DNA of 64,000 bases from a virus, in IMG/VR virus record IMGVR_UViG_3300034418_007369, positions 16,292-80,291 of that record. The stretch is one strand, 5' to 3'. How positions within the stretch are numbered: the first letter of the stretch is position 1; each line of letters begins with the position of its first letter. The position numbers were made by a program, and so were the translations under genes. Positions 16,258-29,381 of the stretch are shown here, piece after piece. The notes under the pieces are model-generated. The model searched no databases. It saw only the letters and a program-made list of their open reading frames with translations, and was not told the origin of the DNA.

Positions 16258-16685
16258 AAATAGAAATAGTAGGATTAGACGCAAGGGGCTACATATGGAT
16301 GCCGCTATCCGCAGCCGCCGAGAATGTTAATAGATCAAAACTTCATGAAAAAGCATACAAACTTATTGAAGAATTCTATCCGTATGATACGATATTGGAA
16401 GAAGTGACACTCCCCGGAAGCAAAGACCAATTTGGAGGAAAATCCCTTAGAGCGGACTTGTTTTTACCAGCTAGAAGAATTATAATAGAAGTTCATGGAG
16501 AGCAACATTATAAGTTTAACAAGTTCTTTTTTAAGAGCAAGCTAGACTTTTATAAAGCCAAAGCCAGAGACTCAGACAAAAGAGAGTGGTGCGAGTTGAA
16601 CGAAATAGAACTGATAGAATTAAATTATAATGAGGACATTGATGAGTGGAGAACAAAAATTAGAAGAGTTTCTTCTAGCGATTGA
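16254..16685 (+). CDS. Vsr/DUF559-like PD-(D/E)xK endonuclease
   Basis: LRADLFLP...IIIEVHGEQHY...RDSDKREWC. Confidence 0.75.
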   Translation: MKIEIVGLDARGYIWMPLSAAAENVNRSKLHEKAYKLIEEFYPYDTILEEVTLPGSKDQFGGKSLRADLFLPARRIIIEVHGEQHYKFNKFFFKSKLDFYKAKARDSDKREWCELNEIELIELNYNEDIDEWRTKIRRVSSSD

Positions 16686-22522: not shown

Positions 22523-23404
22523 GTGTCGCAGTTGATAGACCTAAAAAAAGACTTTGATTTGGGGAATAAATTTTTACTAGACGTAGCGTCAGAGCTATCT
22601 AACACTCTAGATGATAGTTATAGGGTTGTTATTAAGTATGATCTACAAGATTACAATATTCCAAAAGACGACAAGAAAAATATACTTTTTGCGCTGTCTA
22701 GAGAAACACATGAACTACCAAGATACACAGAAGACGAAAGGATTTTTCTTACGTTTCATAACTATGCTCCTTTAGACGCTTGGGGACATCCGATAAATCA
22801 TCCGAAAGTTGTGCCGCTGCCGCTTGGATTCTTTATAAATGATATGACCTCCAAGGTTGAAGAAATAAAGCCTCACGAAGATAGAGAATATGACTTCTGT
22901 TTCGTTGGACAGATACCGCATACCGGAACAAGAGATAAGTTTAAAAGATGTTTAGACAATATGCTAGAGCGCATAGGAAATAAATACAAATACTACGTCA
23001 AATATACTGAGTCTTTTGGTTGCGGCTTAGATCATCAAGAATATATTGACTTATTAAACAACTCAAAAATTTGCCTATGTCCGACTGGGGCATATAGTGA
23101 TGAGTCTTTTAGATTTTTTGAATCTATAGCTATGGGGGCGTTCCCTATGGTTGAAATGCTGCCAAGGTTTTGGTATTATGAACAGGCACCAATGTTTTTC
23201 GCTAAATGGCAATTCTTAGATAGCTTTCTAGAAAATTCTTTAAATTTTTTACGATCTGAAAATAAAAGAGTTGCACTTGAACAAATTGTAAACTACAATA
23301 ATACAATATTGAATACTGTCACCCTTTCTGGATTTTTGAAAAAGATAATTGATGAACAGCAAATACATACCAATAAATTGCAAGACCCACTTCAGTCTCC
23401 TTAA
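22523..23404 (+). CDS. exostosin-like (GT47) glycosyltransferase
   Basis: REYDFCFVG...R...YIDLLNNSKICLCPTG...SFRFFESIAMGAFP. Confidence 0.75.
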   Translation: MSQLIDLKKDFDLGNKFLLDVASELSNTLDDSYRVVIKYDLQDYNIPKDDKKNILFALSRETHELPRYTEDERIFLTFHNYAPLDAWGHPINHPKVVPLPLGFFINDMTSKVEEIKPHEDREYDFCFVGQIPHTGTRDKFKRCLDNMLERIGNKYKYYVKYTESFGCGLDHQEYIDLLNNSKICLCPTGAYSDESFRFFESIAMGAFPMVEMLPRFWYYEQAPMFFAKWQFLDSFLENSLNFLRSENKRVALEQIVNYNNTILNTVTLSGFLKKIIDEQQIHTNKLQDPLQSP

Positions 23405-24944
23405 AGGATTCTCTAATCCCGATAGACTAGCGAAACTGTGCGCTTCATATAACTATGGGGCGTGCGTTCTTGCTGATGTCAACACTCTTTCTGGCGCCGT
23501 GAACTTTCATCAGGCGTGTACGAAGAATGGCGTCAAGCCAATACTAGGACTAGACACAGAGCAATTCCTCCTAATTGCAAAGAATAAAGCTGGATGGCTA
23601 GACCTTATTAAATATTCTTCAGAAGAACAAGATATTGACACTCTGAAAAGAATAGCTGATAATGGCAACATTTTGTTTATAACAACAGAAGATAGTCCAG
23701 CCCAAAAGAAAATGTGGGGAAAGAATTATTTTTGTTATGATTATATTTCTGATGCGGTGTATTATTGCACCAAAGAAGAAGCAGAGCTACATAGAATCAT
23801 TCTGTGTTCTGGGATGAAAACCAGCATTCCGAAAGTTACGGCAAAGCTGCAAAAGGGAGAAGATTTTGAAAACAAACACTTCTTTACAAGTGAAGATTAT
23901 TGCTTAAAGCCGACAAGCAGAGTCACAGGTAATAAAAAATTATTTGACGCACTCGCTTCGTGCGAAGAGTATGAAATCACCGGAAAGCCAATGCTGCCAG
24001 AGTTTGATGTGCCTGAAGGGTTTGATAGTGATGAGTATCTTAAAGAGCTTTGTCGGCATGGTTGGAAATCTAAACTCGCCCCCGCTGGCAAAGTGTCCGA
24101 CCCAAAACAGAAAGAAATCTATCTGCAAAGAGTAAAGACTGAGCTTGAAGTTATCTTTAAGGCTAATCTTAGTGGTTATTTTTTGATCGTGCAAGATATT
24201 GTCAATTATGTTAAAAATCGTGGCTGGATCGCTGGTCCCGGTCGAGGATCTGCTGCCGGGTGTTTGATCTCTTATTTAGTTGGAATCACAGAAGTTGATC
24301 CAATTGAATTTGACTTACTCTTTGAGAGATTTTATAACGAGGGACGGAATACGGAAGATCACGTCTCGCTTCCAGATGTTGATATGGATGTTCCCGCAGA
24401 ACATCGAGACGAAGTAATTGACTACATTAAAGAAAAGTATGGAATTGATAAGGTCTCCCAGATGGTAACATTTGGTAAACTACAAGGTCGCGCGGCGATC
24501 AAAGAAGTTTTAAGAATCAATGATGCTGTATCTTTTTCTGAAATGAACGCTATTACAGATAGTATTCCAGATGAAGCTAAAATTTCTGACCAGCTAGAAC
24601 TCATGGAAGATAAGTCTATTATCAGATGGGCGCTAGAAAACGAATCAGAAGCGCTAAAGAGCTGGTGCTATTATGATGAAGAAGGAAACTTAGAAGGACC
24701 GCTATCAAGATATTTTGAACAAGCTATTAAAATTGAAGGAACAAATAAATCTCAGGGCAAACATGCTGCCGGTGTAATTATATCTAAACATCCACTAGCA
24801 GAGGTTTGTCCAATGGTTAAAGACAAGAATGGTAAAATGATTGCCGCGCTTGAGATGAATGACCTAGAGGCTATGGGTCATGTTAAGTTTGATGTTCTTG
24901 GAATTGACTTGTTAAGTAAAATTATGGAAATATGTGAGGATTAA
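23352..24944 (+). CDS. dnaE: DNA polymerase III alpha subunit, N-terminal half (degenerate PHP, palm, thumb)
   Basis: THFSLLKG, YFLIVQD, GPGRGSAAG, LLFERFYN, PDVDMD, GKHAAGV, KFDVLG; ends immediately after the third catalytic Asp motif. Confidence 0.93.
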   Translation: MNSKYIPINCKTHFSLLKGFSNPDRLAKLCASYNYGACVLADVNTLSGAVNFHQACTKNGVKPILGLDTEQFLLIAKNKAGWLDLIKYSSEEQDIDTLKRIADNGNILFITTEDSPAQKKMWGKNYFCYDYISDAVYYCTKEEAELHRIILCSGMKTSIPKVTAKLQKGEDFENKHFFTSEDYCLKPTSRVTGNKKLFDALASCEEYEITGKPMLPEFDVPEGFDSDEYLKELCRHGWKSKLAPAGKVSDPKQKEIYLQRVKTELEVIFKANLSGYFLIVQDIVNYVKNRGWIAGPGRGSAAGCLISYLVGITEVDPIEFDLLFERFYNEGRNTEDHVSLPDVDMDVPAEHRDEVIDYIKEKYGIDKVSQMVTFGKLQGRAAIKEVLRINDAVSFSEMNAITDSIPDEAKISDQLELMEDKSIIRWALENESEALKSWCYYDEEGNLEGPLSRYFEQAIKIEGTNKSQGKHAAGVIISKHPLAEVCPMVKDKNGKMIAALEMNDLEAMGHVKFDVLGIDLLSKIMEICED

Positions 24945-25160
24945 ATGAATGCTACAAAAGAAGAATATATGTCTGTGATTTTTTCTGGTTGCAGTATTGA
25001 CTATAAAGATATTACATTTTGTAATTTGGCTAATCACTATAGAAGATTGGCAAGATCAAATGAATATCAAGTATGGTCAGACAGACAAAACGAATATCAC
25101 CTATTTAAAAATATCGAAGATGCTGTTGATAAGTTTATTGAACTAAAGAAAAGGAAGTAA
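24945..25160 (+). CDS. hypothetical 71-aa protein between the split dnaE halves
   Basis: GAGGA RBS; ATG immediately follows the dnaE-N stop. Confidence 0.65.
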   Translation: MNATKEEYMSVIFSGCSIDYKDITFCNLANHYRRLARSNEYQVWSDRQNEYHLFKNIEDAVDKFIELKKRK

Positions 25161-25161
25161 C

Positions 25162-25857
25162 ATGGCGAACTATAGAGATATTATTGTTTTTGACTTTGAG
25201 ACCGGCGGCGCTAATCCATATACGTGTCAGCCAACTCAAATCGCGGCTGTGGCTATCCACGCTAGAAAGCTAGAGCTACAGCCCGGAGGCGTGTTTAACA
25301 GCGAGATTCGCCCTATTATCGACGACGATGAGGCCATTAAAGCGGGAGTCGGCCCGTTGGAGGAAGAGGCTCTGCGGGTAACGCGCAAAAACCGTGACGA
25401 CCTAGCAAAAGCACCTTTGCCCAAAACAGTATGGAAAAAGTTTGCTCAGTTTTGCGACAAATATAATTTTAAGAAAACTAATTATTATGCACCTATCGCT
25501 GCTGGCTATAATATCAATGGCTTTGATATGCCTATTGTGGAGAGAATGTGTCAACAATATGGTCCAACTCATGCAAAGAATGGCAGGCAGGGAATCTTTA
25601 ACCCTATTTTTACCATTGATGTAATGCAACATATTTACTGCTGGTTTGAAAACAATACAGAAGTAAAGGGATATGGTATGGATTACTTGCGCGACTATTT
25701 TGGAATGAGTCAGGCTAGTAAGGATAATGCTCACGATGCGTTGCAAGACGTTAAGGATACCGCTAATATCATGATTAAGTTCATGAAATTGCAAAGAACA
25801 TTGCTACATAAAGTTAAATTTGAAAAAACATTTGCGAACGGGGATATTTATGTCTAA
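25162..25857 (+). CDS. dnaQ: DEDDh 3'-5' exonuclease (DnaQ/epsilon-like)
   Basis: ExoI VFDFETGG, ExoII AGYNINGFD, ExoIII HDALQD. Confidence 0.88.
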   Translation: MANYRDIIVFDFETGGANPYTCQPTQIAAVAIHARKLELQPGGVFNSEIRPIIDDDEAIKAGVGPLEEEALRVTRKNRDDLAKAPLPKTVWKKFAQFCDKYNFKKTNYYAPIAAGYNINGFDMPIVERMCQQYGPTHAKNGRQGIFNPIFTIDVMQHIYCWFENNTEVKGYGMDYLRDYFGMSQASKDNAHDALQDVKDTANIMIKFMKLQRTLLHKVKFEKTFANGDIYV

Positions 25858-27391
25858 ATTTGACATTAATAATTTTGAAGATGAAGAAGTTTGGGATTTG
25901 ATTTGCGAAGGACGCACAAAGGGCGTTTTTCAACTTGAGTCTAGCCTTGGTAAGCATTGGGCTAAAGAAGTCAAACCCAGAAGCATCAGTGAATTAGCGG
26001 CTCTTATTTCGTTGATTCGTCCCGGCTGTTTGAAGGCTTACACAGATGGTAAATCCATGACACAGCACTATGCGGATAGAAAAAAGGGAACTGATGCTGT
26101 TGATTACCCAGATGATTCTTTGGAGCCTATTCTAAAAGGAACCTATGGTGTTTTGGTATACCAAGAGCAAAGCATGAAAATCGCCCAGCAACTAGCTGGG
26201 TTTGACCTTAAAGAAGCTGATTCGCTTCGTAAGGCTATTGGTAAAAAGAAAGCTGAACTCATGGAAGAAATGAAACAGGTCTTTATGGATGGCGCCGAAA
26301 AGCAGGGGATTATCAAGAAGGAAGTGGCGGGAGAGATTTTTTCATGGATCGAGAAGTCTAACCGCTACGCCTTCAACAAAAGTCACGCTGTTTCATATGC
26401 TATTGATGCATACTGGAGCGCGTACTGTAAATGTCATAGATTAGAGAGGTTTTACGTGAGTTACATGAATCGCTCTGACCGTAAGCCAAAGCCTGAGATT
26501 GAGCTAAAACAGCTTATCATGGATGCTAAGATGCATGGGCTAGACACCTATCCGCCAAGGCTTAATCACATGCACACAAATTTTCTACATGAGAATGGTA
26601 AAATTTATTTTGGTATGAGGCACATTAAAAATGTAGGCACGAAAGAGTGTGATAAAATTGAAGAATTAAAACAAACAGAAGATTTGTCTTTGTTTACTTG
26701 GATGGATTGTCTTATCAAGATTGTTCACCGTACCAAGATCAACAAGCGAGCGGCAATTGCTATGATTTCTGTTGGTGCGTTTAATGGCAAGAACAATAGA
26801 GAGTCTCGCCAGAAAATGCTGTATGAATATGATAGCTGGAATAATCTTTCTGCAAGAGAAAAAGATGCCATCGCTGATAATTACAAAAGTAATTTAACTT
26901 TGGCTCAGTGTGTAGACCTGCTATCAGACTGGGTTAAGATTAATTCTAGAAGGGCGCAAGCGATAGAGGACATCAAGCAGTCTCTCATTTCGCCATTCTA
27001 TAGCCTAGATGACGATCCCGCCTCTATTGCAGATTATGAAATTAAATTAATGGGGTGTGCCTTGACATGCAGTAAGGCAGATTCTATAAATATTTCTACA
27101 AATATGTGCAAAGATGTGACACAGGGTACTATAAGAGGTAAGGTAAATCTTTCTGTGATGATTAATTCTATCCGTACCTATAAAACTAAAAAGGGAAAGA
27201 ATCCCGGCCAAGAGATGGCTTTTTTGTGTATTGAAGACGCGAGCGGCGAACTGGATTCCGTTACAATTTTTCCAGAAGCATTTATAAAATATAAAGATTT
27301 ATTGATAGAAAGAAACACTGTCTTCATAGATGGTGAGGTTTCTAAGAGGGATAAAAATTCCATCGTTGTTAATAAAGTTATACAAGTTTGA
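25850..27391 (+). CDS. dnaE: DNA polymerase III alpha subunit, C-terminal half (fingers, HhH, OB fold)
   Basis: GVFQLES, LIRPG, YGVLVYQEQ, ADSLRKAIGKK, YAFNKSHA, FGMRHIKNVG, and OB fold MAFLCIEDASG...TIFP. Confidence 0.93.
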   Translation: MSKFDINNFEDEEVWDLICEGRTKGVFQLESSLGKHWAKEVKPRSISELAALISLIRPGCLKAYTDGKSMTQHYADRKKGTDAVDYPDDSLEPILKGTYGVLVYQEQSMKIAQQLAGFDLKEADSLRKAIGKKKAELMEEMKQVFMDGAEKQGIIKKEVAGEIFSWIEKSNRYAFNKSHAVSYAIDAYWSAYCKCHRLERFYVSYMNRSDRKPKPEIELKQLIMDAKMHGLDTYPPRLNHMHTNFLHENGKIYFGMRHIKNVGTKECDKIEELKQTEDLSLFTWMDCLIKIVHRTKINKRAAIAMISVGAFNGKNNRESRQKMLYEYDSWNNLSAREKDAIADNYKSNLTLAQCVDLLSDWVKINSRRAQAIEDIKQSLISPFYSLDDDPASIADYEIKLMGCALTCSKADSINISTNMCKDVTQGTIRGKVNLSVMINSIRTYKTKKGKNPGQEMAFLCIEDASGELDSVTIFPEAFIKYKDLLIERNTVFIDGEVSKRDKNSIVVNKVIQV

Positions 27392-27402
27392 AAAGGATTA
27401 TT

Positions 27403-27729
27403 ATGAATAATTGCTCTTTTTTAGGCAAGCTCAAAGAGCCTGTCTTTTCTACAGTATCTAATGATGTTGATATGGTTAATTTTGTACTTGAAGTTGAAGA
27501 ATATAGAAAAAATAAATCTGGTCAAAAAACAAGACGTGTTGAAAATCTAACATTTGAAGCATGGCACACCGCCGCTATTACCCTGAGAGAAAAATTAAAT
27601 GTTGGCGATCTCGTTCTGGTAGAATGTACAGCCAGAAGCAAAAGAGACGAAGATGATTTTTGCTACTTTAGAGTCAATAGTTTCAAGATTTTTAACAAAG
27701 AAAGATACTCCACGCAATCGGAAGACTAA
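27403..27729 (+). CDS. ssb: single-stranded DNA-binding protein (OB fold)
   Basis: MNNCSFLGKL...FEAW...GDLVLVEC pattern of bacterial-type SSB; follows the polymerase. Confidence 0.7.
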   Translation: MNNCSFLGKLKEPVFSTVSNDVDMVNFVLEVEEYRKNKSGQKTRRVENLTFEAWHTAAITLREKLNVGDLVLVECTARSKRDEDDFCYFRVNSFKIFNKERYSTQSED

Positions 27730-29381
27730 TGAGAAAAAAGAAGATATTGTTTGTTTCTGAGGCTTCGTGGCTTAGTACCGGATATTCCGTATATACCAAG
27801 GAAGTTCTTAGTAGACTAAATCAGATAGAAGAATTTGAAGTTGCTGAACTAGCCTGCTATACGGACGCAGCAAATCCAAATATAAAAAAAACACCTTGGA
27901 AGGTATACGCCAATAAACCATTACCAGACGATCCAAATCTAAATATTTACAAATCTAACACAATTGCTCAATTTGGTGAATTATCATTTAATAGCGTACT
28001 GCTAGACTTTATGCCAGATATTGTGATGGATATTAGAGACTGGTGGATGCTAGAGTTTGAACAGCGCTCGCCTTTTAGAGACATGTTTCACTGGGCGATT
28101 ATGCCAACGGTAGACGCATCGCCACAAAATATGCAATGGATAAATACGTATGACTCTGCGGATTCCGTGTTTGCTTATTCTGAATTTGGAAGAGATACGA
28201 TGAGTCGTCAATGCGACACGATAAAGTTTGTTGATGTGGCGTCTCCGGCGGCCAGTAAGGTATTCAGTCCAGTAGATGATAAGCGCCAGCATAAGATTAA
28301 CATGGGCGTGTCCCCAGATAGTATTATAGTGGGAACCGTAATGAGGAATCAAAAAAGAAAACTATATCCAGATCTGTTTTCTTCATTTAGAAAATTTTTA
28401 GATATTGCAAATAAAGATAACGTGTTTTTATACGCGCACACCTACTATCCAGATGTTGGATGGGAGATTCCACAGCTAATACAAGAAAACGGTCTTTCTA
28501 ATCGCGTACTGATGACATATAAGTGTAAGAAGTGTGACACTATCAGTGTTGACTTTTTTCAGAATTCTGTTCAGGTATGTAATAAATGTAAGAGTTTGTC
28601 TAATCAGCTTGTTGGCATAGGCAATTCAATAGAAGAAAATAGACTCTCGCAGATTTACAATCTGTTTGATATTTATGTCCAATACGCAAACAGCGAAGGC
28701 TTTGGTATGCCGCAGCTTGAAGCGGCGCACTGCTCTCTTCCTGTTATTTCTACTTATTATTCTGCCATGCAGTCTGTAATAGACAATATTGGTGGAATCG
28801 GAATAGAGCCAATTTCATACTATAAAGAATGTGAAACGGGATGCAACAGGGCGGTTCCAGATAATGAGCTTTTTGTTCAGGCTTTACTAGACCTAATTTC
28901 ACGCCATGAAAACGATTCTAATTATTTGGTTGATCTGGGTAGGACCATTATGGAAAAAGCCAAACATCACTATACTTGGGATGCAGCTGCCGACAAGTGG
29001 GCTGCTAGATTTAAAGAGGTGGAACTAAAAGACCCAAAAGAAACTTGGCTGTCTCCATCAAAAATTAGAGTACCAAAAACTGAACTACCCGCCTCACTTA
29101 AAAACGCCAAAGAAATAACGGATTTTATTTTTAATAGTGTTTTGTGCAAGCCCGAATGGATCGGTAATCATATTTGGAGAAGGATGTTAAGAGATTTGAC
29201 ATTTGGCTATAAGTGCGAAAGTTCTAATAAAGAGTTTTACTTTAATGAGTCTCATAACAAATCTCAAAAATCAAGTTTGCCCTTTTCTCCTCAAGATGCA
29301 CTAAAAGAAATGTTAAACTTTAGAAATCAGATGAACTCTTGGGAACAGGCCAGATTAAGAAAAATCGGAGCAATAAAATGA
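27729..29381 (+). CDS. glycosyltransferase family 4 with inserted Cys4 zinc motif
   Basis: STGYS, VMRNQKRK, EGFGMPQLEAAHC; CKKC...CNKC insert. Confidence 0.88.
   Translation: MRKKKILFVSEASWLSTGYSVYTKEVLSRLNQIEEFEVAELACYTDAANPNIKKTPWKVYANKPLPDDPNLNIYKSNTIAQFGELSFNSVLLDFMPDIVMDIRDWWMLEFEQRSPFRDMFHWAIMPTVDASPQNMQWINTYDSADSVFAYSEFGRDTMSRQCDTIKFVDVASPAASKVFSPVDDKRQHKINMGVSPDSIIVGTVMRNQKRKLYPDLFSSFRKFLDIANKDNVFLYAHTYYPDVGWEIPQLIQENGLSNRVLMTYKCKKCDTISVDFFQNSVQVCNKCKSLSNQLVGIGNSIEENRLSQIYNLFDIYVQYANSEGFGMPQLEAAHCSLPVISTYYSAMQSVIDNIGGIGIEPISYYKECETGCNRAVPDNELFVQALLDLISRHENDSNYLVDLGRTIMEKAKHHYTWDAAADKWAARFKEVELKDPKETWLSPSKIRVPKTELPASLKNAKEITDFIFNSVLCKPEWIGNHIWRRMLRDLTFGYKCESSNKEFYFNESHNKSQKSSLPFSPQDALKEMLNFRNQMNSWEQARLRKIGAIK

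Follow-up and report, generated by a model that had tools for sequence, protein, structure and literature searches.

A phage DnaE polymerase encoded in two pieces with an exonuclease gene nested between them

DNA polymerase III (Pol III) alpha, or DnaE, is the textbook single-chain bacterial replicase. How, then, is a virus to be read whose dnaE lies in two separate open reading frames (ORFs) with two other genes between them? We address this question for a 64,000-nucleotide (nt) stretch of viral DNA, hereafter the window, which comprises positions 16,292 to 80,291 of IMG/VR record IMGVR_UViG_3300034418_007369 (~80 kb in all; CheckV completeness 52%). On the plus strand of the window, dnaE-N (23352–24944; 530 amino acids, aa) encodes a short degenerate PHP domain, the palm and the thumb, and dnaE-C (25850–27391; 513 aa) encodes the fingers, a helix-hairpin-helix (HhH) and an OB region. 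The stop codon of the first and the start codon of the second are 905 nt apart and the two ORFs are in different frames. Between them lie s71 (24945–25160), which encodes a conserved small protein of 71 aa, and exo (25162–25857), which encodes a 231-aa DEDDh (epsilon/DnaQ-like) 3'-5' exonuclease; a 113-aa ORF for an SSB-like OB-fold protein follows (ssb, 27388–27729; PF00436, 5.8e-09). Judging from sequence, we put at roughly 80% the probability that the two halves form a non-covalent two-chain polymerase.

We compared both halves with domain profiles and with one-piece relatives. dnaE-N starts at an ATG at 23352 (its ORF opens with a TTG at 23349) and stops at a TAA at 24942–24944, its C-terminal end reading ...KFDVLGIDLLSKIMEICED; it matches PHP (PF02811, 3.7e-12; 47.3 bits against a cut-off of 26.4) and the full Pol-beta-like palm profile (PF07733, positions 1–260 of 260, 1e-71). 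All three catalytic aspartates are present, with PDVDMD and KFD in columns that are invariant in the family alignment. dnaE-C, which from the ATG at 25850 begins MSKFDINNFEDEEVWD, matches the fingers profile (PF17657, positions 26–166, 1.3e-46) and HhH_6 (PF14579, E = 7.7e-11), and carries YAFNKSH uninterrupted at residues 173–179; its OB match is weak (19.6 bits, under the cut-off of 27), and a beta-barrel stands at the C-terminus in the AlphaFold2 (AF2) model of an unsplit sister, P0139. The halves cover positions 246–612 and 623–1068 of phrog_405, respectively, and when they are aligned to E. coli DnaE with reference to solved structures, dnaE-N ends at ~563 and dnaE-C begins at ~591.

The exact position of the cut is given by unsplit relatives from public metagenomes (P0137–P0139; 1052 aa), which are 57–60% identical to dnaE-N and ~54% identical to dnaE-C. 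On P0139, dnaE-N residue 531 corresponds to position 532 and dnaE-C residue 2 to position 533; because the two termini map to adjacent positions, nothing has been lost or duplicated at the break. The AF2 model of P0139 (pLDDT 88.8) has a strand at 514–520 that carries the third catalytic aspartate, a helix at 521–533, a coil at 534–542 and a further helix at 543–550. In this model, the last palm helix ends at the cut, and the short coil that leads into the fingers begins shortly after it. Because PDVDMD and KFD lie in dnaE-N and the finger motif YAFNKSH in dnaE-C, the active site would be composite. The initial annotation, made from the letters alone, had described complementary, non-overlapping halves divided at the palm/fingers boundary, with the catalytic motifs retained and YAFNKSH intact, and each of these features is borne out by the alignment to E. 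coli DnaE, the exact abutment on P0139 and the residues named above.

The ends created by the cut are conserved. In all split contigs, the N-half terminates 9–13 residues past a ...DLLSKIM motif, and the C-half starts with M(S)FDINNF..., except in deep branches, where a Cys-rich leader of ~25–35 aa comes first. This leader, in the deep-branching C-halves of contigs L060, L064, L066, L068 and L069 (labels of this kind are our own), contains F.CGCQF and one further Cys ahead of the FDINNF-equivalent, and is possibly a small metal-binding element; about two thirds of the clusters of stand-alone C-halves described below have such a leader, of 10–40 residues. In the PHP domain of dnaE-N, the HxH of motif I, the motif that was checked, is replaced, with P, N and K aligned to the His residues of the Thermus aquaticus enzyme. 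Because this HxH is lost, the PHP domain probably has a structural role only.

We then asked whether the split is real and the pieces still in use. Scans of IMG/VR, of JGI and Tara metagenomes and of GTDB genomes returned the same gene order and breakpoint in ~100 independent contigs, with dnaE-N identities from 40% to 94%; this is the survey of related contigs that the initial annotation had proposed, and the breakpoint recurs. All three junctions (N/s71, s71/exo and exo/C) are spanned, with 0–2 differences, by contigs that were assembled from three independent DNA runs attributed to different studies, and N-halves of ~530 aa that stand alone abound in Tara, ENA, JGI and Logan data. Likewise, when 1.8 billion cluster representatives (50%-identity clusters) were searched and the 150 nearest to dnaE-C taken, 143 were stand-alone C-halves, and an N part was present in only seven. 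The window record is itself a metagenome-derived contig; against the independent contigs, the bridged junctions and the abundant N proteins, the probability that its split is a misassembly or a sequencing frameshift is practically nil, and misassembly, which the initial annotation had named beforehand as grounds for rejection, is not supported. Nor do the pieces look like debris. Compared with L004, a relative at 90% protein identity, the ratio of nonsynonymous to synonymous substitution rates (dN/dS) is 0.045 for dnaE-N, 0.11 for s71, 0.011 for exo, 0.039 for dnaE-C and 0.10 for ssb. It is very unlikely that the halves are relics or have taken on separate new roles while host Pol III replicates the phage: neither a clamp nor a clamp loader was detected in related, incomplete records, which would suit such a view, but dN/dS is ~0.04 on both halves, the catalytic and dNTP-binding motifs are kept across the whole range of identities, both halves are always retained together across relatives, and they share a replication module with genes for DnaB, DnaG, SSB, RecA, ribonucleotide reductase (RNR) and dNMP kinase. 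Each of five related records (completeness up to 88%) has a single PF07733 match, and in none of the five was a family A or family B polymerase (PolA, PolB) found; an intact polymerase elsewhere, which the initial annotation had named as counting against the proposal if the halves also neither associate nor polymerise, has thus not been found in them.

A gene in two pieces could still yield one chain, were the halves covalently re-joined, once transcribed or translated, by a device that we failed to recognise, for example ribosomal bypassing, an intron of unusual type or a split intein of very small size. Protein splicing does occur elsewhere in the same gene in relatives, and the lineage is rich in inteins. 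In the window, however, neither half has a Pfam intein domain, and neither a Cys/Ser-start block nor an HN/SN+C/S/T junction is present at the N end or the C start. Because the N end and the C start abut exactly on the unsplit sequence, there is no room for intein parts, for which ~100 aa and ~35 aa would be needed. An Rfam E-value scan of 23000–28000 found no intron and only a chance snoRNA match; the gap consists of two genes under purifying selection, and among relatives its length runs from 872 to 3786 nt with a varying frame. The joint that splicing would create (24944 to 25850) appears in no DNA or RNA contig of any run, and in contigs of one metatranscriptome library the s71/exo and exo/C junctions are present in unspliced form; the stretches of the region that part of the RNA run X20 left bare were not used for any conclusion. 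With all of this set against it, re-joining is extremely unlikely, and the initial annotation's claim that intein termini are lacking agrees with the Pfam result, with the absence of spare residues relative to P0139 and with the controls that relatives provide.

Because the real inteins of relatives were detected, a splicing element of a known kind would have been seen in the window. L066 (8821–11211) has a contiguous intein in dnaE-C (PF14890), and 47 of the 150 nearest clusters carry in-frame inserts, which fall at four recurrent sites near C residues 56–65, 104–108, 126–132 and 170–178 (cluster representatives P0262–P0398). In L011 (10042–12874) and L075 (8870–11687), a split intein interrupts dnaE-C a second time, at YAFNK|SH. 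Its N-part starts CLS or CLD and its C-part ends ...SN before SH; between the two intein parts lies a gene for a 295–302-aa Vsr-like/DUF559+NUMOD3 endonuclease. An intron was considered for this interruption and rejected, as Rfam found none. The gap of the window holds s71 and exo and no homing endonuclease gene; some relatives add an HNH gene (L012) or genes for helix-turn-helix (HTH) proteins to theirs, and these additions vary.

Several points weigh against a two-chain polymerase. The related records are incomplete (at most 88%), so that a second polymerase is conceivable. A sliding clamp (beta-clamp, PF00712) was not found in the five incomplete records, which is a weak negative. The RNA evidence is weak because it consists of assembled contigs, from one metatranscriptome, at 90–99% identity, and the library may contain carried-over DNA. 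Lastly, we infer, and have not observed, the association of the chains, their stoichiometry, the binding of the exonuclease to the PHP domain and the polymerase activity. The heterodimeric, non-covalent replicase of the initial annotation therefore stands as the best-supported reading, on the strength of purifying selection, a sole detectable polymerase, the lack of a splicing device and a composite active site, while the assembly itself is still an inference.

On the two-chain reading, one mRNA would yield dnaE-N, s71, exo and dnaE-C by coupled translation, and because their stop and start codons abut or overlap, the products should be equimolar and made in the order N, 71-aa protein, exonuclease, C. 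dnaE-N would supply the PHP scaffold, the palm with its three catalytic aspartates and the thumb, and dnaE-C the fingers, with the dNTP- and template-binding YAFNKSH region, the HhH and the OB. The cut site tolerates chain termini, and the parts could therefore dock as in the one-piece enzyme; N and C would meet along its palm-fingers interface to form the active site, and neither half alone would be expected to polymerise. The DEDDh exonuclease would be the proofreader, analogous to epsilon on an inactive PHP domain, and by analogy with epsilon in E. coli it probably binds the PHP domain of dnaE-N. Since no clamp was found in the related records, processivity would come from the host clamp or from an unrecognised protein; it may depend on the former.

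The exonuclease assignment is supported by a PF00929 match (1.6e-13; 52 bits against a cut-off of 24) and by phrog_192, 'DNA polymerase exonuclease subunit'. The motifs DFE, NGFD and HDALQD can be read in the sequence as ExoI (DxE), ExoII (D) and ExoIII (Hx4D), and a tail of ~28 aa extends beyond the nuclease domain. The 71-aa protein is harder to place. It has 28 distinct homologues with invariant G15, C26, Y41, Q42, V43, A60, F64 and L67, and across these 28 members no Pfam or PHROG match was found even at E<=1. Its model (pLDDT 83.6) consists of a helix, four strands and a helix; Foldseek against the PDB returned nothing at E<=0.001, the best structural matches are weak (YkuJ at Z 6.6, within the noise range, and an AP2 domain at Z 5.2), and an atlas score of 0.85 to DUF2552 is a lead only. 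A 68-aa ORF of L098 was considered as a homologue and rejected.

Could the product of s71 act, like theta, as an accessory subunit of the core that binds the exonuclease and keeps it stable? The theta subunit of E. coli has 76 aa. Position and size are what suggest such a role: s71 lies directly upstream of exo wherever it is present, in split genomes and in the unsplit L075/76 alike, is near theta in length, and is under purifying selection. Its predicted alpha-beta4-alpha fold is nonetheless not the helical bundle expected of theta, theta/HOT chains are not among its structural matches, no Pfam or PHROG family claims it, and it is absent from a large N-exo-C subgroup (L080–L096) and was not detected in L098–L100. 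We regard a theta-like role as doubtful.

We next consider how the arrangement arose. In the unsplit sisters dnaE is intact, and the same exo gene comes immediately before it with an ATGA overlap; the neighbourhood, too, is that of the split forms, with a PD-(D/E)XK nuclease gene upstream and a 550-aa GT4 glycosyltransferase gene downstream. (The gene context of P0139 is taken from the metagenome scan; scans of viral contigs with P0139 and P0150 gave no match.) Gene order is exo-dnaE in L098–L100 and s71-exo-dnaE-ssb in L075/76, and a second large group of split forms, L080–L096, has N-exo-C-ssb without s71. Because unsplit sisters have exo directly upstream of intact dnaE, the nested genes are not a foreign insertion; what distinguishes split from unsplit forms is which of two neighbouring segments, exo or the N-coding part, comes first.

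Trees built on concatenated DnaE (FastTree, 86 rows; IQ-TREE, 46 rows) show split and unsplit groups interleaved. The clade of the window (support 100) is sister to the unsplit P0137–P0139 (99), and the next branches are an unsplit clade of 10–15 rows, the N-exo-C clade and the deep split lineages L066, L068 and L069; L068 and L069 group with the unsplit P0165, P0172 and P0182. The concatenated trees imply four changes of split state; trees of the N columns alone require four and those of the C columns alone three, at least two being forced by well-supported branches. That all split forms belong to one clade, a group defined after the tree had been seen, is rejected by an approximately unbiased (AU) test (delta log-likelihood 187.5, p = 2e-6). 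Because close relatives carry the same enzyme in one piece, more than one cutting or re-joining of dnaE has taken place. The same clades come out in the exo tree, with the order among the main ones unresolved; this tree gives no sign of horizontal movement of an exo cassette, and in that state neither supports nor excludes transfer.

The gene may have undergone fission repeatedly, or re-fusion repeatedly, or relatives that infected the same cell may have recombined. A tandem duplication of exo and dnaE-N followed by two deletions would pass through viable intermediates; none was found among the relatives collected. We propose tentatively, at somewhat less than even odds, that the cut is recurrent and possibly reversible, with exo having switched several times between a place upstream of intact dnaE and a nested one, always at the same loop. 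If so, there may be a mechanistic hotspot, for instance through such a duplication and deletions, or selection for synthesis in the order N, exo, C and hence co-translational assembly of the core, and the family would constitute a naturally occurring set of Pol III cores, matched in one-piece and two-piece form.

Other genes also move at this locus. A conserved 165-aa gene, absent from the window, lies upstream of exo in unsplit forms (L098, 5818–6312; L075, 5573–6067), upstream of dnaE-N in some split ones (L048, 893–1390), and between N and exo in L082 (8652–9128); its shifting position fits separate rearrangements. The three junctions of the split forms act as insertion slots, to which relatives add one to four further genes (L008, L009, L011, L012, L023, L028, L034, L044, L050, L052, L054, L061 and L068). 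These encode FkbM and class-24 (Methyltransf_24) methyltransferases, GT2 glycosyltransferases, a formyltransferase, an HNH endonuclease and HTH proteins, and they echo the genes for sugar modification on either side of dnaE in the window (RmlA and GT47-like upstream, GT4 downstream).

The coupled operon of N-half, 71-aa gene, exonuclease, C-half and SSB that the initial annotation had drawn, with two intact genes filling the 905-nt gap, held up at the level of single codons. dnaE-N and s71 abut directly (TAA-ATG), with a GAGGA Shine-Dalgarno sequence for s71 inside the final dnaE-N codons; s71 and exo are joined by TAAC-ATG; the dnaE-C ATG overlaps the exo stop by 8 nt (ATGTCTAA); and the ssb start overlaps the dnaE-C stop, ssb being downstream of dnaE-C in most relatives as well. 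The starts of s71, exo and dnaE-C are each served by a separate Shine-Dalgarno-like purine run. In the window and its closest relatives (L002–L007), dnaE-N and s71 share a frame with a single TAA between them (24942–24947); because the frames differ in more distant relatives, a read-through fusion of the two is not a conserved feature. A scan for promoters and terminators gave signals no higher than expected from shuffled sequence. Upstream lies the rest of the replication module, with genes for RNR, dUTPase, PhoH, RecA, DnaB, DnaG, dNMP kinase and the PD-(D/E)XK nuclease. A PHROGs search with eight putative structural genes gave no useful matches.

Metagenomes in which the window phage is found come from 13 studies and are of freshwater, estuarine and marine origin. 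The phage has no cultured relative, because in comparisons of the region with cultured phages blastn returned nothing and tblastn reached at most 30% identity. The truly bacterial matches are all one-piece, for example in Neomarinimicrobiota (36–45% identity over the palm). A 24.6-kb contig with the order N-s71-exo-C-ssb and 68% identity to dnaE-N (L110, CAXDOW010000022.1) is binned in a Flavobacteriales metagenome-assembled genome, a weak hint of a host. In one run, X1, a single contig has a joint that skips 266 nt (24910–25177, most of s71), with only 26 letters matching on its shorter side; a related strain or a chimera is the probable source.

What would a two-chain DnaE mean? To our knowledge, the cyanobacterial split, which is repaired by an intein, is the only well-known natural split of Pol III alpha. 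Here, a very abundant aquatic phage lineage would have a two-chain replicase cut between the catalytic palm and the nucleotide-binding fingers, and a C-family active site could be assembled from separate polypeptides. One-piece and two-piece sisters, matched at 54–60% identity in the same gene neighbourhood, can be used to ask what a replicase gains or loses by being split, how an epsilon-like proofreader docks and by which route a gene undergoes fission. In annotation practice, a 'DNA polymerase III alpha' call of half length in a viral metagenome denotes a real gene rather than a fragment. New in this work are the order of genes in the unsplit sisters, the phylogeny and AU test that bear on how often the state changed, the contigs from an RNA library and the intein positive controls.

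In domain order and motifs, the window enzyme resembles the one-piece DnaE, accompanied by separate epsilon and theta subunits, of E. coli (2HNH, 5FKU) and Thermus aquaticus (2HPI, 3E0D) and the unsplit relatives (P0137–P0139, L075, L098–L100), and it shares with one-piece systems a proofreader that is a separate DEDDh protein and a PHP domain without the HxH of motif I. It departs from them in that the chain is cut after the last palm helix and exo lies inside the cut, not directly upstream; where the DnaE catalytic subunit is by definition a single polypeptide, the window has two ORFs.

A cyanobacterial split DnaE with a split intein was reportedly described by Wu et al. in 1998, and Methanothermobacter has a split PolB. 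In ocean metagenomes, 'fractured' dnaE genes have a free-standing gene between the halves at one locus (Dassa et al. 2009, PMC2677866), and our L011 and L075/76 carry such a site at YAFNK|SH. Like the cyanobacterial and fractured genes, the window encodes DnaE in two genes; unlike in the window, those halves carry intein parts, are ligated to one chain and are broken at other sites, and the gene in the gap of the window encodes a replisome subunit, not a homing endonuclease as in the fractured genes. Further afield, Aeh1 NrdA is cited in PMC2677866 as split by mobE, and the PhiKZ DNA polymerase (DNAP N+C) is a two-chain B-family enzyme (PMC13648687). With these and Methanothermobacter PolB the window would share an essential enzyme made as two chains without splicing, but they belong to other enzyme families and their gap holds a selfish endonuclease or nothing, where that of the window has the gene for the polymerase's own putative proofreader.

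Our literature search found no paper on a full-length DnaE without an intein that is divided at the palm/fingers loop and has its proofreader gene in the gap, and none on repeated switching between such a split DnaE and a one-piece form. Two cultured phages have dnaE in pieces: Tenacibaculum phage Larrie (ON950054; L073, 3135–6715), in two adjacent ORFs, and Bacillus phage vB_BceM_WH1 (LC597490; L074, 3432–7630), in three. Their breaks differ from that of the window, lying at about dnaE-N residue 336–350, just before PDxD, with no exonuclease gene in the gap; this break site is apparently recurrent and matches PHROG families 13169 and 12219. In the group 2.2 jumbo phages, a minimal Pol III alpha is split into two proteins predicted to reconstitute (Iyer et al. 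2021, PMC7824862). The jumbo-phage version, however, is a minimal core without PHP and other domains, encoded by distant genes alongside a family B polymerase, whereas the window enzyme, the only polymerase detected, is full-length, with its halves adjacent in one operon and the exonuclease gene nested between them.

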